A DNA stretch of 64,000 nucleotides from a virus, in the IMG/VR virus record IMGVR_UViG_3300009157_000003, positions 6,776 through 70,775 of that record; one strand, 5' to 3'. This document shows positions 3,415 to 23,493 of the stretch, piece after piece. Each line of letters starts with the position of its first letter. The stretch's first letter is position 1. The position numbers were made by a program, and so were the translations under genes. A model generated the notes under the pieces. That model searched no databases. It saw only the letters and a list, made by a program, of their open reading frames with translations, and had not been told where the DNA came from.

Positions 3415-4623
3415 ATGGCGATCCCCATCATCATCTTCGGTGACGGCCCGACCACCCACACGGGGTTGGGTCGGATTGCCACGGACCTCGCGCGCCTGTT
3501 GCACGCGCATCGTGAGCAACTGGGGATCGACGTGTATCAGGTCGGCTGGAGCCCGACACCGCCCCCCGACGGGCTCCCGGTCATCGCCGGGACCCAAGGC
3601 TGGTCCCACGGCGGGTGTGACTGGCCGGTGTGGCTGTTCTACGACCTCCGGACCTGGGGGCGGGAAGCGCTCACCACGTTCTACGCCTTTCATATTGGGC
3701 TCGACACCCGCGCGGTCGTCCTGACGGTCTGGGACCCGGCGCGGTGTTACGACCTCTTCGCGCCCGTCGCCGATGGGGTGTACCCTGTGCTCCCGGCGGA
3801 GTACTGGGGGTACTTCCCGATCGACGGGCACAATCATCAGGGGGCGTTCGGCGGCCCGGCGGCGGAGGCCGTACGGGCGTACACCCGCGTGCTGGCCTAC
3901 ACCCGGTACGGCGCAGGCGTCCTCAAGCGAATTGTGAAGACGGTGGATCACCTGCCGCACGGGATCCACACCGGCATCTTCCACCCGAGCGCGACGAGCC
4001 CGCTGGCGACGAAGGTCCGCGAGAAGATCGGCGGCGCGCCGCTCGTCGGCGTCGTCGCCACGAACACCACCCGCAAGGACTGGGGCATGGTCTTCCAGGC
4101 GCTCTGGCGGATGCGCCAGTACACCCCCGACGTCCATCTGTGGGCGCACGTCGATGAACTCGTCACCGAGGCGTGGTCGATTCCCCAGTTGGCGGAGGAT
4201 TACAGTTTCACCGCGGCGAATCTGAGCCTGACGACCGGCGCGCACACCGATGAGGAACTGGCGTCGCTGTACGCCCAGTGCGCGGTCACGATCGCACCCG
4301 GCCGCGGCGAAGGGTTCGGTTTCCCGATCGTCGAGTCGCAGGCGTGCGGGACGCCGGTGATCCATTGTGACTACGCGGGCGGGGCGGAATTCACCCCGAA
4401 GCAACTCCGGATCGATCCCCTCTGCTATCACGCGGTGGGGCCGTACGCGATCGAGCGCCCGATCCTCGACCCGATGACGGTCGCGGTCGTCGCCGAGCAG
4501 TACTTGACGAAGGACGACCCGGCGCCGTGGGCCACCGGCGTCGCGCATCTCGATTGGACCGTACTCTGGCCGCAGTGGCAGCAGTGGATCGCGGACGGCC
4601 TACAGACCTGGAGGCTGCGATGA
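3415..4623 (+). CDS. GT-B fold glycosyltransferase (GT4-like)
   Basis: N-terminal GDGP..TGLG, PHGI, and C-terminal EGFGFPIVESQACGTPVI (EX7E) motif. Confidence 0.9.
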   Translation: MAIPIIIFGDGPTTHTGLGRIATDLARLLHAHREQLGIDVYQVGWSPTPPPDGLPVIAGTQGWSHGGCDWPVWLFYDLRTWGREALTTFYAFHIGLDTRAVVLTVWDPARCYDLFAPVADGVYPVLPAEYWGYFPIDGHNHQGAFGGPAAEAVRAYTRVLAYTRYGAGVLKRIVKTVDHLPHGIHTGIFHPSATSPLATKVREKIGGAPLVGVVATNTTRKDWGMVFQALWRMRQYTPDVHLWAHVDELVTEAWSIPQLAEDYSFTAANLSLTTGAHTDEELASLYAQCAVTIAPGRGEGFGFPIVESQACGTPVIHCDYAGGAEFTPKQLRIDPLCYHAVGPYAIERPILDPMTVAVVAEQYLTKDDPAPWATGVAHLDWTVLWPQWQQWIADGLQTWRLR

Positions 4624-14685: not shown

Positions 14686-15614
14686 CGGGGTTCATCGCGT
14701 GGGAAGGGGCGTCGCTCCTCACCCGTGACGTCCCGCTCGTCGTCATCGTGACCGGCGAGAGCACGAACACGAAGACCGGGCCGATGTGGCAAAGCTGGAT
14801 CCTGCGGAGTGACCTGCACCCGGTGACCGCGGTGAACACCCGGCAGGACGGGGCGATCTGCGGCCAGTGCGTCCATCGGGGCTATCAGGAGCGTGCACGA
14901 AGCTGCTACGTGAATGTCGCCTGGGCACCGGCGGCGGTCTATCGGAGCTATAAGGAAGGGAAGTACGCCCGTGGCTGGCAGGTCGCGGACTGGCCGCCGC
15001 CGAATGGGCGCGCGCTCCGCATGGGCGCGTACGGCGACCCGGCGGCCGTGCCCTACGACGTCTGGAAGCTCCTCGCCTACTGGGCGGGCGCCTGGACCGG
15101 CTACACCCACCAGTGGCGCGTCTGCGATCAGCGCCTCGCACGCTTCTGCATGGCCTCGGTAGACTCCCGCGAGGAGTACTTCGAAGCCCTCAAACTCGGC
15201 TGGCGGACCTTCCGCGTCCGCACCCCTGATCAACCGGCGGAACCCCATGAAATCATCTGTCCGGCCTCGGAAGAAGCGGGCCACGCCACAACCTGCGCGC
15301 AGTGCCTCCTCTGCTCCGGCACGACCCGACCGCGCGCCACGAACATCGTCATCCAGACGCACGGATCCCGCGGGGCCGCCTTCTTCGAAACGCGGCAGCC
15401 CTCCTTGCTTGACGATCGCGGACCGGTTCTGGGCGAAGGTGAAGTTCCCCGACGACCCGAACGGGTGTTGGGAGTGGATCGGCGGGTACAACACCCCGGC
15501 GAAACGCCCGTGGAAGGGGACGCGCAGGCCGATCTTATTTTTGAGGATGACCGGGGGGCGGCGGGGACGCCGGGAAGTGGTGTACGCGACCCGGATCGCG
15601 CTGGCGATCTATGA
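14682..15614 (+). CDS. Cys-rich phage protein (Gp88-like, possibly Fe-S/radical-SAM-like)
   Basis: NTKTG, ICGQC, CYV, RMGAYGDP, YTHQW, MASVD, CPAS..TCAQCLLC motifs; the last ~65 aa overlap the HNH gene. Confidence 0.6.
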   Translation: MTGFIAWEGASLLTRDVPLVVIVTGESTNTKTGPMWQSWILRSDLHPVTAVNTRQDGAICGQCVHRGYQERARSCYVNVAWAPAAVYRSYKEGKYARGWQVADWPPPNGRALRMGAYGDPAAVPYDVWKLLAYWAGAWTGYTHQWRVCDQRLARFCMASVDSREEYFEALKLGWRTFRVRTPDQPAEPHEIICPASEEAGHATTCAQCLLCSGTTRPRATNIVIQTHGSRGAAFFETRQPSLLDDRGPVLGEGEVPRRPERVLGVDRRVQHPGETPVEGDAQADLIFEDDRGAAGTPGSGVRDPDRAGDL

Positions 15615-15876
15615 CGGCGTCCCGCTCACCGCGCGCGTGGGCCTGGAAGCCTGCCACATTAAAGAATGCTCCAACACGCGGTGCGTCCGGTGGGATCACC
15701 TGTACTGGGGCAGTCCCGCGAGCAATCGGTACGACCGGTACGGGTACACCCAGGCACGATTGAGTTTAGAGGACCTCCGTGGCGAAGCAACCAAAGCAGA
15801 AACCGGGGACGTCGGAGCAGGTGGTAGTGACCCCGGACCTGTTCCTGACGGCCGTCCGGACACGATTGGGGATTGA
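15409..15876 (+). CDS. HNH endonuclease (start uncertain: TTG 15409 or ATG 15247)
   Basis: RFWAKV..CWEWIG, ACHIKECSNTRCVRWDHLYWGSPASN..D. Confidence 0.85.
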   Translation: MTIADRFWAKVKFPDDPNGCWEWIGGYNTPAKRPWKGTRRPILFLRMTGGRRGRREVVYATRIALAIYDGVPLTARVGLEACHIKECSNTRCVRWDHLYWGSPASNRYDRYGYTQARLSLEDLRGEATKAETGDVGAGGSDPGPVPDGRPDTIGD

Positions 15877-16273
15877 GGAGTTTGTGCTCGACTGCGCGGC
15901 GGATGAGCACAATACCAAGGCGCCCCTCTACTGGGGCGTCGAACACAATGCGCTGGTGCAGCCGTGGGATCTCGGAGAGGGGTGGAACTGGTGCAACCCG
16001 CCGTACGCGAAGATCAAGCCGTGGGTCAAGAAGGCGCACGAGGAGATGCGCCTCGGCGTGAAGACGGCGATGCTCCTGCCCGCAGGGGTCGGCGCGAATT
16101 GGTACCGTCAGTACGTACACATGGAAGCGCCCGTCCTCGCGCTCAACGGGCGCCTCACCTTCGTCGGGCATCCGACGCCGTACCCGAAGGACATGATCCT
16201 CATCTTGTGGGATGACACCTGGGCGTCCGCGCGACAGAGTCACTTCGACGTCTGGACCTGGAATGCCCCCTAA
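15779..16273 (+). CDS. dam: Phage DNA N6-adenine methyltransferase (Dam family)
   Basis: TPD, LDCAA..N.KA, WCNPPY, LLPA, GRLTF motifs; GAGGA SD. Confidence 0.9.
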   Translation: MAKQPKQKPGTSEQVVVTPDLFLTAVRTRLGIEEFVLDCAADEHNTKAPLYWGVEHNALVQPWDLGEGWNWCNPPYAKIKPWVKKAHEEMRLGVKTAMLLPAGVGANWYRQYVHMEAPVLALNGRLTFVGHPTPYPKDMILILWDDTWASARQSHFDVWTWNAP

Positions 16274-18341
16274 ACCCCTCGGCCCGGGCGCCAAGAAGCC
16301 CCGCGTCTACACGCCCCGGCATCTCAAGCCGACGTGTGACAGCCCCTGCCAGGGGTGTGCCCTCGAATACCGCGGGGGGAAGGGTATTGTCCCGAGCTAT
16401 CGTGGCTCGCCGGATGCGAACGTGCTGTTGTGGGGAGAAGCCCCCTGGCACGACGAGGCGATCAACGGGGAACCCTTCGCGGGCGCCGCCGGGTCGATGC
16501 TCACCCGTGTGCTAAGACTGATCGGCAAACAGCGTGAGCACTTCCGCATCGACAACCTGATCCGGTGTGTCGTCCCGGACATGGAGATTGAGAAGTTCCC
16601 CGGCGCGGTCACCACCTGTCAGTACCGGACGCAGGAGTTAGATCAGGACCCGCCCAAAGTGCTCCTGACGATGGGCACCGTCCCCCTCCGCCACGTGATG
16701 AACCTCCCGCGGAAGAAGAATCACACGATCGAGACCTTCCACGGGACGGTGTCACGCGACCCGACCGATCGCTTCTGGATCACGCACACCTTTCACCCGA
16801 GCTTTCTCCAGCGCGGGGCGACCAACATGATGGGGGTGATGGCGTTTGACATCGCCCGGGCGCTCGACGTCGCGGAGCACGGGTGGGCACCAGACCCCGG
16901 CGTCATCGTAGTCGATCCACCACCGGACTGGCTCCGCGTCTGGGCGGCGGCGTACGTGGCGGCGGTACGGCGCGACGGGCCGTACGCGTACCCCCTGGCG
17001 GCGGACATCGAGACGCCGGATAAAGGCGCCGACGAGGGGATCATCCTGGCGAGTGGCGCGGATCACAGCTATCAGATTAACCGGGTCAATCTGAGTTGTC
17101 ACCCGGACGAAGGGGTGACGTTCCCGTTCGAGTACCCGTACACCGAGATCCTCGCGGAGATCCTCGCCGCGATGGGCGTGCAGTACTTCTGGTTCAAGGG
17201 GTACGACTTCCCCCGGTTGGCGGCCGCCGGGATGCCGATGAATCCGCGGCTGGCCTGGGACTGCATGTGGATGTGGAAGGCGCTCCAGAGTGACCTCCCG
17301 ATGGGCCTGGGATTCGCCGCGCCGTTCTATTCGAAGTTCGGGGCGTGGAAGCACCTGTCGGAGAGTCAGCCCGGGTTCTACGGTGGGGTCGATGGGTTGC
17401 AGACCCGCCGGGTGGGCGACGGCTGCGTGGGCGATCTGGTGAGCCAGGGCCAGTGGCACGTCTTCGAGCGCCACATGCACGACTTCCACCGGACCGCGCT
17501 CCAGCCCGCGACCGACGTCGGGATCTTCATCGATCGCGATCGGCTCAATACCTTCGGCGGCGAGATGGCGGCGAAGGCCACGGATCTGCTGAATCAGATT
17601 CAGGAGACGATCCCCGACGCACTCCTCCCGCTAACCGGCGGCGCGAAGAACGAGGGGCTGACGCGCCCGCCGACCGCGACGGAGCACACGAAGGCGCGAT
17701 CCACGAAGCAGGACGGCACCGAGAAGAAGCACGCGCCCGACCCGATCAAAGCGGAGTTGTTCAAGCGGGCGGTCGTGGTGGAGAAGCTCGTGCTCCGGCA
17801 GGTCCTCGCCTGTCGAAACTGCGGCCTCACTGAGGTGACGACGAAGCACCGGTGCAAGATCCCCGGCGACCCGCGCGTGGAGTTGACCGCCGCGACCGTC
17901 CGCCGCTGGTTCTGGAAGGAACCCTTCAATCCCGATAGTCACGATCAACTGATGAGCTTCGTCACCCACAAGGGGTATCAGCCCGGGAAGTCCAAGCAGA
18001 CGGGCAATCCCTCGGTGGATCGCGACACGCTCTCTCGGCTGTTGCGCGAGACGAAGGATCCCTTCTTCCAACATCTCCTCGACTACAAAGCCGTGATCAA
18101 GGTGAAGGTGCAGTACGTCGATGGGACGCTGCGGAGGTTGGATGCGGAGGATCGCGTCCACCCGCAGACCACCTTCAAGCCCAACACGATGCGGACCAGT
18201 CAGGTGAATCCGAATTGGCAGAACGTAAGAGCGGACAAGGACGGGAAGAAGTCGATCGCCGCCGGGTTCCGGCATTGTGTGGTCGCCAGAGGCGCGTGGG
18301 TCGAGGAAGGGAGTGGGTGGGAAGATGGCACCGCCGACTAG
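16263..18341 (+). CDS. polA: Family A DNA polymerase N-terminal part: uracil-DNA glycosylase-like domain, 3'-5' exonuclease and thumb
   Basis: CQGC, GEAP..E...GEPFAGAAG, HPSFL (family-4 UDG); ADIET, YD, YGGVD (Exo I-III); FNPDS..Q, TMRTSQVNPNWQN, FRHCVVARG; stops before motif A. Confidence 0.9.
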   Translation: MPPKPLGPGAKKPRVYTPRHLKPTCDSPCQGCALEYRGGKGIVPSYRGSPDANVLLWGEAPWHDEAINGEPFAGAAGSMLTRVLRLIGKQREHFRIDNLIRCVVPDMEIEKFPGAVTTCQYRTQELDQDPPKVLLTMGTVPLRHVMNLPRKKNHTIETFHGTVSRDPTDRFWITHTFHPSFLQRGATNMMGVMAFDIARALDVAEHGWAPDPGVIVVDPPPDWLRVWAAAYVAAVRRDGPYAYPLAADIETPDKGADEGIILASGADHSYQINRVNLSCHPDEGVTFPFEYPYTEILAEILAAMGVQYFWFKGYDFPRLAAAGMPMNPRLAWDCMWMWKALQSDLPMGLGFAAPFYSKFGAWKHLSESQPGFYGGVDGLQTRRVGDGCVGDLVSQGQWHVFERHMHDFHRTALQPATDVGIFIDRDRLNTFGGEMAAKATDLLNQIQETIPDALLPLTGGAKNEGLTRPPTATEHTKARSTKQDGTEKKHAPDPIKAELFKRAVVVEKLVLRQVLACRNCGLTEVTTKHRCKIPGDPRVELTAATVRRWFWKEPFNPDSHDQLMSFVTHKGYQPGKSKQTGNPSVDRDTLSRLLRETKDPFFQHLLDYKAVIKVKVQYVDGTLRRLDAEDRVHPQTTFKPNTMRTSQVNPNWQNVRADKDGKKSIAAGFRHCVVARGAWVEEGSGWEDGTAD

Positions 18342-18783
18342 TCCGATTCGGAGCTTCACCGGCGAATACCGGTTCCTGTCGAATTTCTACCCGTACCGGG
18401 TGATCTACGACGGCATGGAGTACCCCACCGTCGAGCATGCGTACCAAGCGGCGAAGTCCTTTGACATCCGGCATCGGCTTCACATTCAGGCCGCCCGGCG
18501 GGGGGCGATCGCCAAGGCGATGGGGCGGAAGGTGCTCCTCCGCGAAGACTGGGAGACCGTGAAGATTCCGATCATGCGCGAGCTATTAGTGTACAAGTTC
18601 GCGGACAAGAACCTGCGCGGGCCGCTCGTCCGCACCGCCCCGCGGGAACTCATTGAGGGCAACTGGTGGGGGGATCGGTTCTGGGGGGTCTCGAACGGGG
18701 AGGGAGAGAATCATCTGGGCAAGCTCCTGATGGAGATCCGGGGTGAGATCCTCGCCTCGGGGATTGTGAAGGCGATCTCATGA
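18325..18783 (+). CDS. NADAR (YbiA-like) protein
   Basis: FLSNFY, YPTVEHAYQAAK, DWE..K..IM, KF, LIEGNWWGDRFWG, GENHLGKLLMEIR. Confidence 0.95.
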   Translation: MAPPTSPIRSFTGEYRFLSNFYPYRVIYDGMEYPTVEHAYQAAKSFDIRHRLHIQAARRGAIAKAMGRKVLLREDWETVKIPIMRELLVYKFADKNLRGPLVRTAPRELIEGNWWGDRFWGVSNGEGENHLGKLLMEIRGEILASGIVKAIS

Positions 18784-19139
18784 CCGTCCGTGAGTACTTC
18801 CGCCAACTCCGCCGTGAGCAGTGGGAGCTTGATAAGGGGTTCTCCAGTCGGGTACACGACATCTTCCCGCCATCGAAGATGATGATCTCCTTCTGTGGGG
18901 ATCGCGATCCGTTTGAACCGGGGCTGTCGGCGGAGCCCTTTCTCGGGTTGGGGGCGGCGGTCCGCGTGCAGTTCCGGTGTCTCGCGTTCTACGCGCTCCA
19001 CCGGGACGTCCTCATTGGCCTCGTCCGAATCGCCGAGATCGTCGAGGTCGAACAGGAGCTTTCCCCCGACGCGGCGGTCGAAGCACTCCAGGCAGCATTC
19101 GCGGAACGGAGTCGGCGACTGAAGGGGGTCGTGGACTAG
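18780..19139 (+). CDS. Hypothetical protein inside the split polymerase locus
   Basis: ATGA coupling with NADAR; TAGTG coupling with the polymerase C-part. Confidence 0.6.
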   Translation: MTVREYFRQLRREQWELDKGFSSRVHDIFPPSKMMISFCGDRDPFEPGLSAEPFLGLGAAVRVQFRCLAFYALHRDVLIGLVRIAEIVEVEQELSPDAAVEALQAAFAERSRRLKGVVD

Positions 19140-20233
19140 TGGCCGCGGTCTGGGCGAGCGCGAAGATCCTCGAATTCGACTACGCGGGGATCGAACAAGT
19201 CCTGATGGGCTGGTTCTTCCAGTCCGCCCGGTACATCCGCATCGCCAAGCTCGGCACGCACGCGATCGTCGCCTCGACGGTGTTGCACCGGCAGACGCCG
19301 CGGATCTGGTCCCCGGCCGACCTCTCGCTCCCCGATAAAGAGATCGCCGCGTACCTGAAGACGATCAAGAAGACGGAGGATGAAGCGGTCGGCCTCGTGT
19401 ACGATCAGTGCAAGCGCACGGTGCACGGGACGGCGTACGGTCTGACGACACACGGCATGGTCCGGAATTTCCCGACGATCTTCCCCACGCTCAAAGTGGC
19501 GGAGGAGACGCAGCGGATCTACTTCGACGTCGCCCCGGAGGTCCCGGAGTTTCACACGTCGGTGCGCCATACCGCGCATCAGCAGAAGTACCTCGGCGGC
19601 GCGGCGACGTACCAGTACCTCCCCGCCGAGCGGAAGGTGATCGGTCATCCCTATGGGTACAAACTCTGGCTCTGGTCCGTTGTCGCGTACGAACGGCTCA
19701 ACCCCGGCCAACTCCTCTGGCGACAGAAGCGCAAGCTCCCCACGATCGAGATCAATGGGATCTGGTACGGGATCACCCTCGGGGAGGACGCCAAACGTGC
19801 TGCGGCGTTCTACCCCCAAGGGACCGCACGAGGCGTACTCACAGATGCCTGTTTCCCCCTCTTTGACCCGGAGGATCCTCTCGCCGAATCCTGTTATATC
19901 GGCGACTGCTATTTCGGCCGCACTCCGCTACGCGCGCCGATTCATGATTCCCTCTTAATCGAAGCGCCGACCCGGATGGTCGATCGGATCATCGAGCGCG
20001 TCTGCCGGGCGATGATGCGGCCGATCGACGCGATGCCGTGCCCGCCGGAGTGGGGGATGGGCGAGTACCTCACCGTCGGGGTGGACGGGAAGATCGGCGC
20101 CGACTGGGGCTCGATGGTCGGGCTCGACCTGCCCCGGTACGAGGACTTAGAGATTGCGAGCGACAGCCCGTACACCCCCGCGGAGGACGAAGACGAGGAT
20201 GACGTCCTGGATCTGGAAACGAGGATTGCATGA
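19139..20233 (+). CDS. polA: Family A DNA polymerase C-terminal catalytic part (palm/fingers)
   Basis: Motif A EFDYAGIE, motif B KRTVHGTAYG, PQGTA, motif C IHDSLLIE; GTG start overlaps the upstream TAG. Confidence 0.9.
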   Translation: MAAVWASAKILEFDYAGIEQVLMGWFFQSARYIRIAKLGTHAIVASTVLHRQTPRIWSPADLSLPDKEIAAYLKTIKKTEDEAVGLVYDQCKRTVHGTAYGLTTHGMVRNFPTIFPTLKVAEETQRIYFDVAPEVPEFHTSVRHTAHQQKYLGGAATYQYLPAERKVIGHPYGYKLWLWSVVAYERLNPGQLLWRQKRKLPTIEINGIWYGITLGEDAKRAAAFYPQGTARGVLTDACFPLFDPEDPLAESCYIGDCYFGRTPLRAPIHDSLLIEAPTRMVDRIIERVCRAMMRPIDAMPCPPEWGMGEYLTVGVDGKIGADWGSMVGLDLPRYEDLEIASDSPYTPAEDEDEDDVLDLETRIA

Positions 20234-20472
20234 TCCCTGAGCCCGGCTTCCGCTTCGTCGTCTGGGTACGGGATCTCCGGCAATGGTTCCCGCCGTCCGA
20301 TCACACCGCCACGCGCGTGACGTACTACGAGGTCACGCGCGTCACCCCGAAACGGGTGTACTTCCGGTCGTCGATCGACGGTCCCGGCTGGCGGCGCTAC
20401 ATGCCGCGGGATCGGTGGGACGACCTCGTCGCCCGTCGGCATCTGCTCGACATCGGGACGAGCATCCCGTGA
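20230..20472 (+). CDS. Hypothetical protein
   Basis: GAGGA SD, ATGA coupling. Confidence 0.6.
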   Translation: MIPEPGFRFVVWVRDLRQWFPPSDHTATRVTYYEVTRVTPKRVYFRSSIDGPGWRRYMPRDRWDDLVARRHLLDIGTSIP

Positions 20473-20984
20473 GCGGCCGCCGCGCTGGAGAACGCTTCAC
20501 CTTCTTCAACACCGCGTTCACCGATGAAGAAGTGGACGTGATCCTGGGGATCATGCAGCAGTGCGGGTTCACCACACCCGGGCAGTTGATCCGCCACGGG
20601 TTGTACTTCTTCGCGACCCGGCACCTGGATCTGGATGTCCCGCTGGACCTGTTCGATCAGCGGCGACGGATCAAGAAGCTGGCTACCGACCGGGTGGTCG
20701 GGGCGGAGGTCCCCCTGCCCGACTCGGCGCCGGAGGTCCCGGGGGTCCCTGAAGGACCGCCGACGTCGTCCCACTCGGGAGCACCCCTAGCGCCTCCAGC
20801 GTCGCCGGAGCCCCCGGCCCACCAGAACGGATCGGCCCCTGGGGGGGCGGCCCCGGCGGCGGCGGCCCGATCGTCGGCGGCGGACCCCCCTGGCCGGTGT
20901 TCGGCCCCGGTCCCATCCCGCGGCCGCTCGACCCGGGGGTCGTCCCGGGCGCCTGCCGCACGCCCCCCTCGGGCGCCTGACTGA
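20469..20984 (+). CDS. Hypothetical protein (ribbon-helix-helix-like N-terminus)
   Basis: GTGA coupling; FTDEE...L...G.T...LIR.GL pattern; the C-terminus overlaps an antisense gene. Confidence 0.5.
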   Translation: MSGRRAGERFTFFNTAFTDEEVDVILGIMQQCGFTTPGQLIRHGLYFFATRHLDLDVPLDLFDQRRRIKKLATDRVVGAEVPLPDSAPEVPGVPEGPPTSSHSGAPLAPPASPEPPAHQNGSAPGGAAPAAAARSSAADPPGRCSAPVPSRGRSTRGSSRAPAARPPRAPD

Positions 20985-23493
20985 GGAAGCCTTCCCGGAC
21001 GAAGAACGCCAGGAGGTTCGACGCGGCGCGGGCGGCCGTCGGCGAGCCTGCCGGAGCCTTAAACCCGGTGGTGAGGTACTGCCGTCCGAGCGGCGTGAGC
21101 ATCGCGCGGACGACCATCGGCGGGGTGATCAGGATCGCCGCCGCGGCAGGCTTCACCCCGCCGGTGAGCGCGCCGAAGATGATCCCACCCTGGGTCAACT
21201 GGATCGCGGTCCGCCCGGCGCCGCCGAAGCGCTGCCGACTCTCGACCTGCTTGAGCACGCGCGCGAGTTGCCAGAAGGCATCGTCGGTGCCGCGGGGGAA
21301 CACTTCCGCGACCGTCTCCGGCGTCAGGCGCTGGAGGCGCGTCATCAGTTCCTTGCCGCTCACGAGATCCGTCGGGGATTTCCCCTTCAGGAGCTTCTGG
21401 CCGAACGCGCTTTGTACTTCCTTCCAATCCTCGACGCCGACGAGCTTCCGGAGCTTCGCGACCTCCTCGATCTTCCCGGCCTCGATCGCATCGGCGACCA
21501 TCCGGTGCGCGGGCGCGAGCCGGGCGCGGAGGTCTCCCGCTTCCTTCGAGAGTTCACTGGCGCGGCCGCTGAACGCCGCCTGCTCGTCGAGATTGGCGAC
21601 GAGATCCATCAGGTGCCCGCTCCCCGATCGCTCGTACACCGCATCGAGGGTCTCGGGCGTGAGCGTCTGGATCCGCTTCGCCAGTTCCTTGCCGGTGACC
21701 CAGTTGCCGGTGTTGTCGCGGAGGATCGAGTCGAGGTGCGCGGCCTGGACGAGCCGCCACGCCTCCTTGCCGACGGCCTTCTTCGCCAGTTGAATGTCGG
21801 CGACACGGCCGGGACGGACGAGCGCATCGACGACCAGCCGCGGTTCCTTGTCGGCGACCTCCGCGAGGAGCCCATCCTCGTAGGTCCGCACCATGGTCTT
21901 CCACGCGGCGTTCGCTTGATCGTACGCTTTGCGGAGCGGGGTCCCCTGCCCCCCGGCGGCCGCGGTCATCTCCTCGTCGATGGCGGCGAAGTACTGTCCG
22001 GCGTAGTACTTCAACTGACCATCCCCGCGGCGCTCCGCCTCGCGCTGGAGCTTGCCGAACTCGGAGCGGATCCGGTGCGCCTGGGAGAACGTCACCTGTC
22101 GCGCTTGGATCTGCTCGGGGGTGATCCCGGCGCGCTGGAACGCGAGCATCAGCGCCCCCTCGGGGGTGTTCTGCGTCATCGCGTCCGCGCCGATGAGCGC
22201 TTGCACGCCGGTCATGTCCCCGGACTCGACCTGCCGCCGGATCGCCCCTTCGAACACCGGATCCGATCCCTCGACGACCTCGGTGCCGGTGCGCTCGACC
22301 AGTCCCGGCAGTTGCCCGGTCTTCCCCTGCATCGCCCGCGCCATCTCCGGGACCCGGCGCTTCTGCGTCGCCGCGACCGAGAGGAGCGGTTCGAGCCCCA
22401 GGGTGATCCCCCCGGCGGCGCGATCAATCTCATCGTAGAGCGCGCTCGCGCTGGACCGGGCCGCATCGTGCGCCGCCTCCTGGAGAGACTGCCACGCGGC
22501 GCCCGCTTGCTCCGTCGGGATGGTCGGCCCCACCTGTGATTGGAGCCCCTGACGGTTGACAACCGCCGCATCGGCCGCCGCACGCGCGCTCCCCTGGTGC
22601 CGGGCCGCCTGCGCCTCGGCCAGGGTCGCCGGACCCGACAGCGCATTCCGGAGCGTGCCCCCCGCCTGCTCGTTGGTGACCCGCGGCCCGAACTGGTCGA
22701 GGATCTCATCCGCCCGCTCGCGCAGGAGATCGTTCTGCTGCTTGAGGAACTGGGAGTACCGGCCCCCGCCGAAGAAGGACCCTTCGAGGATGTTCTCGGC
22801 GACGGCGAGCCCGCGGCTTTCGGTGACCTGCGCCGGAGTGATATGGCCGCCTAGGAACTCGACCGCTTCGCGCCCGGCGTCGGTGACCTTGCGGGCAAAC
22901 GGCGCGAGGAGCCGACGGCCGCCGCGGATGATCCCCTGGCCGATCCCTTCGCCGACGGCCCCGGCGGTGAGCCCGCTCGCGATGCGCGTCTGGACCTCGT
23001 CCAACTCCGGCGGGGCGCCGACGAGCGATTCGAGCGCCATCGAGACGACTTCGCCCGCGCCCGAGCCGACGACCGAGCCCGCGACGCCGCCGCGGATCCC
23101 GCCGACGGTCGAGGCGGCCGCCGGGACGACGGTGCGGAGGAAGCGCTTGGCCCCCTCGGGCGACACCGTCGGGTTCATCGCCCCGACGATCTTCGAGAGG
23201 TCGAACCCGGGCGGCGCATCGAGGGTGTCGATCGTCGCGCCCACCTTCGCGGAGGGATCCGCGGGCGGGTTCATGAGATCCCGCGAGCGCGCGATCGCGA
23301 CGTCCTCGACGTTGGGCTCGCGCAGGCGGAGCGTCCCCAGGCCGGGCGGGGTACTGATCCGCGGCGGCGGTGGGCCGGGCGGCGGCGACTGCGGCGGGAC
23401 GGCGGTCTGGTTCTGGAGCGCGGCGATCTCCGCGGGCGTCGGATTCCGCACGTTCATCTGGACGCCGGACGACTGTTGCGGATCGAGGGCCAT
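20683..23493 (-). CDS. Large ejection/internal virion protein (P22 gp16 position)
   Basis: Ala/Gly-rich helical protein with GxxxG membrane-like segments; last gene of the late operon; synteny. Confidence 0.7.
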   Translation of the reverse strand: MALDPQQSSGVQMNVRNPTPAEIAALQNQTAVPPQSPPPGPPPPRISTPPGLGTLRLREPNVEDVAIARSRDLMNPPADPSAKVGATIDTLDAPPGFDLSKIVGAMNPTVSPEGAKRFLRTVVPAAASTVGGIRGGVAGSVVGSGAGEVVSMALESLVGAPPELDEVQTRIASGLTAGAVGEGIGQGIIRGGRRLLAPFARKVTDAGREAVEFLGGHITPAQVTESRGLAVAENILEGSFFGGGRYSQFLKQQNDLLRERADEILDQFGPRVTNEQAGGTLRNALSGPATLAEAQAARHQGSARAAADAAVVNRQGLQSQVGPTIPTEQAGAAWQSLQEAAHDAARSSASALYDEIDRAAGGITLGLEPLLSVAATQKRRVPEMARAMQGKTGQLPGLVERTGTEVVEGSDPVFEGAIRRQVESGDMTGVQALIGADAMTQNTPEGALMLAFQRAGITPEQIQARQVTFSQAHRIRSEFGKLQREAERRGDGQLKYYAGQYFAAIDEEMTAAAGGQGTPLRKAYDQANAAWKTMVRTYEDGLLAEVADKEPRLVVDALVRPGRVADIQLAKKAVGKEAWRLVQAAHLDSILRDNTGNWVTGKELAKRIQTLTPETLDAVYERSGSGHLMDLVANLDEQAAFSGRASELSKEAGDLRARLAPAHRMVADAIEAGKIEEVAKLRKLVGVEDWKEVQSAFGQKLLKGKSPTDLVSGKELMTRLQRLTPETVAEVFPRGTDDAFWQLARVLKQVESRQRFGGAGRTAIQLTQGGIIFGALTGGVKPAAAAILITPPMVVRAMLTPLGRQYLTTGFKAPAGSPTAARAASNLLAFFVREGFLSQAPEGGVRQAPGTTPGSSGRGMGPGPNTGQGGPPPTIGPPPPGPPPQGPIRSGGPGAPATLEALGVLPSGTTSAVLQGPPGPPAPSRAGGPPPRPPGR

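Follow-up and report, generated by a model that had tools for sequence, protein, structure and literature searches.

A family A DNA polymerase encoded in two parts around a variable set of cargo genes in uncultured phages

How does a phage replicate its genome when the gene for its DNA polymerase stops just before the first catalytic motif and resumes only after two other genes? This question is raised by a stretch of 64,000 nucleotides (hereafter the window) that represents bases 6776-70775 of IMG/VR record IMGVR_UViG_3300009157_000003, the complete 70,775-bp genome of an uncultured phage with direct terminal repeats (rated 100% complete). The window encodes a family A DNA polymerase (PolA) as two open reading frames (ORFs), polA-N and polA-C, and the gap between them holds a NADAR gene and an orphan gene. 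No match to PolB or DnaE was found in the complete genome, which leaves the split PolA as the only polymerase. Our preferred reading, with a probability of roughly 0.8, is that the two products form an inherited, non-covalent two-subunit family A polymerase and that the break point has become a slot for cargo genes.

All four genes are located on the + strand. The polA-N gene extends from ATG 16263 to TAG 18339-18341 (692 amino acids, P0001), and its frame is already open from ATG 16212 (709 amino acids), the version followed by the polA-N residue numbers used here. The NADAR gene (18325-18783, 152 amino acids, ATG start) overlaps the end of polA-N by 17 nt, the orphan gene (ATG 18780 to TAG 19137-19139, 119 amino acids) shares an ATGA overlap with the NADAR gene, and polA-C (GTG 19139 to 20233, 364 amino acids) shares a TAGTG overlap with the orphan gene. 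An earlier sequence-only reading had ended polA-N at 18341, restarted polA-C in another frame at GTG 19139, and placed an intact NADAR gene and a hypothetical gene, translationally coupled, between them; all coordinates check, and the overlaps at the ends of all four genes agree with the coupling. The G+C content at third codon positions (GC3) is 0.78-0.85 in all four frames used (0.78 in the orphan gene). In the polA-C frame, GC3 is low upstream of about 19100, which supports GTG 19139 as the start, and the C parts of many relatives begin with M-A-A-V-W at the matching position. There was no sigma-70-like promoter in the region and no terminator-like site inside 16212-20233.

The domain content is divided between the two parts with little apparent loss. 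The polA-N protein harbors a family-4 UDG-like domain (PF03167, 7.5e-15, 55.7 bits with a cut-off of 24.3), a 3'-5' exonuclease, the thumb, and the first palm strand, and polA-C contains the rest of the palm and the fingers. Among solved structures, polA-N matches family-4 UDGs (T. maritima 1l9g, 1.6e-26; 1vk2, about 1e-26) and also the thumb region of Pol I, and its exonuclease residues D265 and E267 are invariant in the alignment. The Pfam family PF00476 (DNA_pol_A, 381 positions) is covered at positions 27-148 by polA-N, which passes the cut-off (47.7 bits, cut-off 34.3), and at positions 208-268 by polA-C, which alone falls below it (24.8 bits); a search of the phage's own genome with this family gave 50.2 bits. 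In the DNA polymerase family phrog_17, polA-N covers positions 496-989 and polA-C positions 1007-1239, and because these halves nearly abut, almost nothing is missing between the parts. Alignment with unsplit relatives of 1000-1080 amino acids likewise reveals no lost residues.

In the same alignment, the break falls in a variable loop that follows the strand ...GFRHCVVARG and precedes AVWASAKILEFDYAGIE, the strand of motif A. On the N-terminal side, polA-N ends with the strand ...AAGFRHCVVARG followed by a 15-residue tail (AWVEEGSGWEDGTAD plus stop, 18294-18341), and on the C-terminal side, polA-C starts 11 residues ahead of motif A (EFDYAGIE, 19172-19195), which aligns to ...aDYsqiE... of a solved Pol I chain. 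Motif B (KRTVHGTAYG, 19412-19441) was located by alignment to solved Pol I chains, and motif C (IHDS, 19940-19951) aligns to ...vHDEl... of a solved chain, with HDS here in place of HDE. A profile built from 45 C parts aligns to the solved Pol I chains at all three motifs (llEvDfagiE, KrvvHGtaYG, and iHDSl). Across these 45 sequences, E12, D14, E19, K92, H96, I268, H269, D270, and S271 of polA-C are invariant and Y100 and G101 nearly so; the departures of motifs B and C from the Pol I consensus are accordingly a family trait. Since motifs A, B, and C align in polA-C and the thumb matches polA-N, the cut lies inside the palm, between two neighboring strands. The proposal that the polymerase is split in the palm just before motif A is thus confirmed by both the unsplit relatives and the solved Pol I chains.

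The sequence-only reading had treated this arrangement as a singular case, but the window turned out to be one member of a large split lineage. A search with polA-N retrieved 158 proteins; by length, the 120 listed form two groups (about 680-700 and about 1000-1080 amino acids). Together with seven ORFs from the loci described below, these make 127 N-part rows, three of which were reassigned by hand after inspection; 51 of the 127 stop at this site and 76 run on. With polA-C as the query, 126 stand-alone C parts were obtained at E ≤ 1e-10. The motif A pattern was found in 102 of the 120 listed (18 had no match), and 93 of these 102 have fewer than 40 residues ahead of motif A (exactly 11 in 43 of them), the other nine having longer N-termini. 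When the C-part profile was searched against a library clustered at 50% identity, 1207 matches were obtained (287 at 1e-30), and the best 150 of the 1207 comprise 83 full-length or fused proteins, 34 stand-alone C parts starting at this site, 23 with other N-termini, and 10 fragments. A group of more distant relatives in this search (P0232, P0251, P0315, P0320, P0341, P0342, P0347, P0356, and P0362) starts about 133-146 residues before the C-part profile, near ...FNPxS.... The point where the polymerase domain begins may thus be a second recurrent site of fission, though some of these proteins could be fragments.

The comparison of gene order covered 130 loci from IMG/VR, JGI, and GTDB, some of which represent one phage in two collections. 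Ninety-two loci are unsplit, 13 were called split (the calls for L053 and L128 being doubtful), two have an in-frame insert, and 23 are incomplete. The sole GTDB match is a 48.6-kb contig binned with a Gemmatimonadales metagenome-assembled genome; it is unsplit at this site and gives a weak hint of the host. In the Gemmatimonadales-binned relative (L134, 6001-6269), the UDG part is in frame 1 and the rest of polA in frame 2, which could reflect a further fission event or a frameshift in the assembly.

The split forms carry clade-specific tails at the end of the N part. In the window's class, the tail follows the pattern RG(R)WVE(E/A)GS(GWED/EYAD), with four invariant positions (G694, V697, G700, and D705) and three nearly invariant positions among 18 sequences of about 55% identity. 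This tail is kept within the split class of the window and is missing from short-loop unsplit relatives. The loop of the unsplit protein P0010, ARGRETDDAEYQDRAPAVW, looks as though the tail of its split sister (P0007/P0135) had been joined to the sister's C start.

Sister pairs such as P0007 (split) and P0010 (fused) differ in state, and the split state is scattered across the phylogeny. A FastTree phylogeny of the 127 N-part rows, with the tail columns excluded, requires at least 21 changes of state, 16 of which are forced by well-supported branches. In a quick IQ-TREE analysis of the 43-row neighborhood of the window, 12 changes (nine forced) were counted, and the states were as scattered as shuffled labels. 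The approximately unbiased (AU) test rejects a single split clade (delta log-likelihood 1202, p 7e-47) for a group that was chosen after the first tree had been inspected. Cargo-free forms need no more than a point change or one-base indel at the junction to switch between split and fused.

One alternative is that the working enzyme is nevertheless a single chain, either because the 798-nt gap is an ORF-carrying self-splicing intron or because its flanks form a split intein. Phage polymerase genes are common hosts of group I introns and inteins, an intron was considered by the authors who described the split polymerase of phage MEP401 (PMC10580990), and in same-family relatives of the window, inteins interrupt the polymerase about 30 residues upstream of the break and 14 residues downstream of it. 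Against this, no intein family was matched by the four proteins or the complete genome in Pfam, and no Rfam family was found at E ≤ 1 in 15500-21000, a test whose reach does not extend to a novel class of ribozyme; the earlier impression that no intein or intron hallmarks are visible therefore stands. Moreover, the gap consists entirely of coding sequence whose starts and stops overlap, so that a ribozyme core would have no space, and the 15-residue tail and the 11 residues before motif A are far below the size of an intein half, with the usual splicing residues absent at their ends. Relatives with abutting halves also keep the stop and the start even though there is nothing to splice out. A single spliced chain is consequently very improbable. 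Programmed frameshifting or ribosomal bypass across the 798 coding nucleotides was also considered and rejected.

The inteins of the relatives are located at ...RLS| in P0034, P0040, and P0108 (within the motif RLS|xxPNxQN) and at ...EFDY|C in P0157 and P0160, and further in-frame inteins interrupt the N part near residues 150 and 300. The intein-bearing set includes the loci L021/L022, L033, and L037/L038, and some intein-bearing relatives are also split at the site studied here. True inteins sit nearby in relatives, and the region is clearly a target for mobile elements, although the cut itself is not an intein site.

Residues 225-709 of polA-N were modeled together with polA-C, and the predicted complexes reached ipSAE values of 0.85, 0.87, and 0.85 compared to 0.00 for the best of three controls. 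The calibration is only rough because our own alignments were used; 58 of 80 solved complexes attained the ipSAE mark, as did 2 of 110 mismatched pairs. At least 72% of the contacts are common to the runs, and the predicted local distance difference test (pLDDT) score of the partners is at least 82. In the model, the interface includes residues 680-699 and 702-706 of polA-N (the strand and the tail) and residues 1-10 of polA-C. Such a model displays likeness to an intact polymerase rather than binding. Based on the conservation in dozens of divergent relatives, the intact motifs, and the separation of the model from its controls, the two-subunit enzyme envisaged by the sequence-only reading appears to be the most likely product.

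The first cargo gene encodes a NADAR protein (PF08719, 1.9e-23, 84 bits with a cut-off of 35.1; phrog_1017, 4e-43) whose nearest solved chain is E. coli YbiA (2b3w, 1.9e-21, versus 1e-5 for 8bau). Its segment ...reliEgn... aligns to ...klvEht... of YbiA, and we read the aligned glutamate as the last-strand residue that defines the YbiA subfamily, following the criterion described in PMC11125620. In vitro, NADARs of the YbiA type and from phages act on DNA by removing ADP-ribose from guanine (PMC11125620), and phage NADARs (AdfN) are reported to overcome the DarTG1 defense (PMC11825919). By family membership, the window's NADAR probably strips ADP-ribose from DNA guanine, and a role in counter-defense is likely. 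NADAR homologues were found near polA in only three of 129 loci, twice upstream and once in the gap. In L019, polA is unsplit and is preceded, at a distance of 53 nt, by the end of a NADAR gene (3865-4302) that is 50% identical to that of the window. This accessory gene can therefore lie beside or inside the polymerase gene in different phages.

The second cargo gene is an orphan, with no Pfam or PHROG family, no relative in IMG/VR, and only a self-match among 5.8 billion clusters. The Atlas model of its protein has a pLDDT of 0.46 and gave no usable match, the structural rows all having template modeling (TM) scores below 0.5. A partial homologue was found in the gap of L125 (1e-16), and there is a weak N-terminal likeness to a gap ORF of L035 (5e-6 over 40 residues). 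A family of small 'MTVRE...' ORFs that would always precede the C part was considered and dropped, as the resemblance is clear in L125 and weak in L035, and the ORF of L056 is unrelated.

Across the split relatives, the break point is fixed and the cargo is variable. The gap is empty, with overlapping or GTGA-coupled halves, in L005/L055, L030, L107, and L079; it measures about 190 nt with no clear gene in L092 and holds one small ORF in L056 and L109. Larger gaps contain three ORFs (L035), about five ORFs including a DUF4031 gene (L116), or a Dam gene (PF05869, 2e-12) with an 85-amino-acid ORF and the homologue of the window's orphan gene (L125). The gap of L029 (about 2.3 kb) contains several further ORFs, a NADAR gene, and an HNH-like gene, the latter being a weak match (HNH_3, E 0.0035) below the cut-off. 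In P0153 (600 amino acids), which is the partner of the N part P0025, a DpdA domain (PF23859, 1e-45; 7-deazapurine-in-DNA transglycosylase family) is fused to the N-terminus of the C part.

Upstream of polA-N, the window encodes a Dam-type N6-adenine methyltransferase (15779-16273, + strand; PF05869, 7e-23) directly adjacent to the polymerase gene. An HNH-type endonuclease gene is located at 15247-15876 (phrog_1872, 1e-10; phrog_826), likewise directly upstream of the polymerase and with overlapping frames. Other upstream genes include a Dda-like helicase and sugar- and methyl-transferase-like genes.

A different origin for the gap would be a mobile cassette of the NADAR and orphan genes that entered an intact polymerase gene and thereby created the split, leaving the 7-mer GACTAGT as a target duplication or microhomology. 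The sequence-only reading had noted this 7-mer at both junction stops and suggested that it might be an insertion scar. Both positions check (18336-18342 at the polA-N stop, and 19134-19140 at the orphan-gene stop and polA-C start), these are the only two + strand copies in the window, they stand in register, and removing the DNA between them would yield a TAGTG stop-start. The HNH endonuclease gene in the gap of L029, the one just upstream of the window's polA, and the split of Aeh1 nrdA, which is documented as a homing endonuclease insertion (PMC3045599), are also consistent with such an event. On both strands, 1.58 copies of GACTAGT are expected, with at least three in 20 of 100 shuffles. 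However, seven or more shared letters occur in 19% of random 40-mer pairs. The six other cargo-bearing relatives share only four to five letters at their junctions, which is within chance, and cargo-free coupled split forms exist. The window's gap has no endonuclease, integrase, or transposase by Pfam or PHROG. The tail before the first 7-mer is also kept by relatives of the same class whose gaps hold other cargo or are empty, so the split would predate the cargo of the window. Moreover, the two passengers did not arrive as one unit, as the orphan gene is shared with L125, whose gap has Dam and not NADAR. An origin of the split by cassette insertion is therefore improbable, and the scar proposal is not supported; the GACTAGT pair is probably due to chance and at most reflects local microhomology. 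Excision of the DNA between the 7-mers was rejected because two ORFs would still remain, and a 13-nt inverted match (85%) at the junctions was regarded as noise, being one of 36 similar pairs in 1.5 kb.

We propose that the replicative family A polymerase of this phage would be built from two polypeptides that assemble unjoined. The polA-N product would contribute the UDG-like domain, the proofreading exonuclease, the thumb, and one palm strand, and polA-C would contribute the motif A strand, the fingers, and the remaining palm, so that the chain break would fall in a surface loop or hairpin between neighboring palm strands. The break would be inherited within a clade of uncultured high-GC phages and may be mutationally easy to make and to undo. 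The junction would then be an intergenic spot open to additional genes, within an early operon that is translationally coupled; the cargo in the window comprises a YbiA-type NADAR, likely removing ADP-ribose from DNA guanines in counter-defense, and the orphan gene.

Several points weigh against this two-subunit reading. The pass of the complex model is expected for halves of a fold with many one-chain structures and may reflect memory of them. The phylogenies consist of FastTree and quick IQ-TREE runs rather than careful searches, the AU-tested group was named post hoc, and parsimony is compatible with either a split or a fused ancestor. The scatter of states could also stem from recombination near the junction instead of repeated mutation, and sequencing frameshifts could in principle account for some of the directly coupled 'split' relatives, a possibility that the conserved tails and Met starts make less likely. 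For the cargo, E. coli YbiA and the T4 NADAR gave no in-cell protection from DarT1 in one study (PMC11125620). A search for RNA runs containing the stretch listed none, and the one DNA run (0.05 share) covers only 151 nt (19302-19452) and 37 nt near 17636, leaving the junctions uncovered. As the record is assembled from a metagenome, the split might also be mere damage to a polymerase gene in decay, or an artefact of a contig that is chimeric or wrongly assembled. On the other hand, the same break with conserved tails and Met starts recurs in independent assemblies from many samples, invariant catalytic residues and the coding GC3 pattern are kept in both halves, and no other polymerase is encoded in the genome, which is complete and bears terminal repeats, all of which makes damage or artefact extremely improbable.

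A more far-reaching possibility, which we regard as unlikely, is that the loop before motif A is a selected docking slot. In that case, cargo such as NADAR, Dam, DpdA, and HNH proteins would be made in step with the polymerase through translational coupling and act at the replication fork, the tail would serve as a clasp as in Aeh1 NrdA, and the orphan protein could be a third subunit related to assembly. If true, the cargo might clear ADP-ribosylated guanines or modify new DNA at the fork.

The two-subunit reading would imply that a break between palm strands, 11 residues ahead of the metal-binding aspartate, evidently does not keep a family A polymerase from acting as the sole replicase of a phage. 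The frequent interchange between one and two pieces provides a natural, well-sampled break point for engineering split PolA enzymes. The lineage may also be a test bed for how fragmented essential genes survive, with tails as possible clasps and translational coupling possibly setting the stoichiometry. Since the cargo includes members of two DNA-modification families (Dam and DpdA), a nuclease-like HNH gene, and NADAR genes, the last with a putative counter-defense role, the junction is a place to seek phage accessory and counter-defense genes.

Previous work has already described split phage polymerases of families A, B, and C. In T7-like cyanophages of the S-SBP1/S-TIP37 group, PolA is likewise encoded as two gene products that are predicted to reassemble, and an AlphaFold model of the exonuclease and polymerase parts superposes on an unsplit relative (PMC10201439; PMC12695635). 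This exonuclease-polymerase fission was called the first split seen in PolAs by Czernecki et al. 2023 (PMC10201439). Unlike in the window, the cyanophage split is located at the boundary of the exonuclease and polymerase domains rather than in the palm, and the available descriptions mention no cargo genes.

T4-like phages provide further essential replication enzymes cut in a critical region, as in the window, whose halves are reported to reassemble without splicing. The products of the split gene 43 of Aeromonas phage 25 (43A/43B; also in 44RR) co-purify and are active (PMC2988022). The split Aeh1 NrdA (nrdA-a/mobE/nrdA-b) is functional, and the new terminal tails at its break are needed for activity (PMC3045599). 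These cases differ in that they concern ribonucleotide reductase or family B polymerase, with a homing endonuclease gene or an untranslated spacer in the gap, whereas the gap of the window has no nuclease. In the fractured genes of Dassa et al. 2009 (PMC2677866), DNA-synthesis genes are broken around a free-standing gene, as in the window; these genes carry trans-splicing split inteins, whereas the window has no intein parts.

The N-terminal family-4 UDG-like domain is shared with the UDG-PolA fusions described by Czernecki et al. 2023 from N4-like cluster 17 phages, SPO1, and others, and the members described there are single chains. A solved chain titled putative DNA polymerase I (9qhs_A) also has a UDG-like N-terminus. 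Among GenBank phages, polA-C had no tblastn match, and polA-N had eight weak matches, mostly to the UDG part, at ≤30% identity over parts of the sequence. Our literature search, whose scope left out supplements (e.g., the figures on unclassified UDG-PolAs of PMC10201439, which could be relevant), found no paper on a cut before motif A in a UDG-PolA.

The closest parallel is found in the OM43 (Methylophilales) phages MEP401 and MEP402, in which the polymerase is encoded by two ORFs with a small ORF between them (gp13/gp14/gp15), a split that is common to most related metagenomic genomes according to their description (PMC10580990). In our translation of MEP401 (OP830906), gp13 ends with ...PNLQNFDGEIKTLFLSRYGE and a stop, and gp15 begins with MILNADAKALEW. 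As in the window, the halves are separate ORFs and the cut falls at the homologous spot, after the strand that follows ...PNxQN... and a few residues before the motif A aspartate. The MEP401 polymerase differs from that of the window in belonging to another PolA subfamily without a UDG domain, in coming from low-GC marine phages, and in having a single insert gene of 77 amino acids. The MEP401 paper does not place the cut relative to motif A, leaves an intron open, and reports neither flips between fused and split forms nor a tail. There is no likeness between the MEP401 and window PolAs detectable by tblastn, and we claim no common descent. Because MEP401 is cut at the homologous place, the cut site recurs in an unrelated PolA subfamily. 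The arrangement in the window is therefore real but neither unprecedented nor a new category, since the polymerase of a cultured phage is cut at the same spot.

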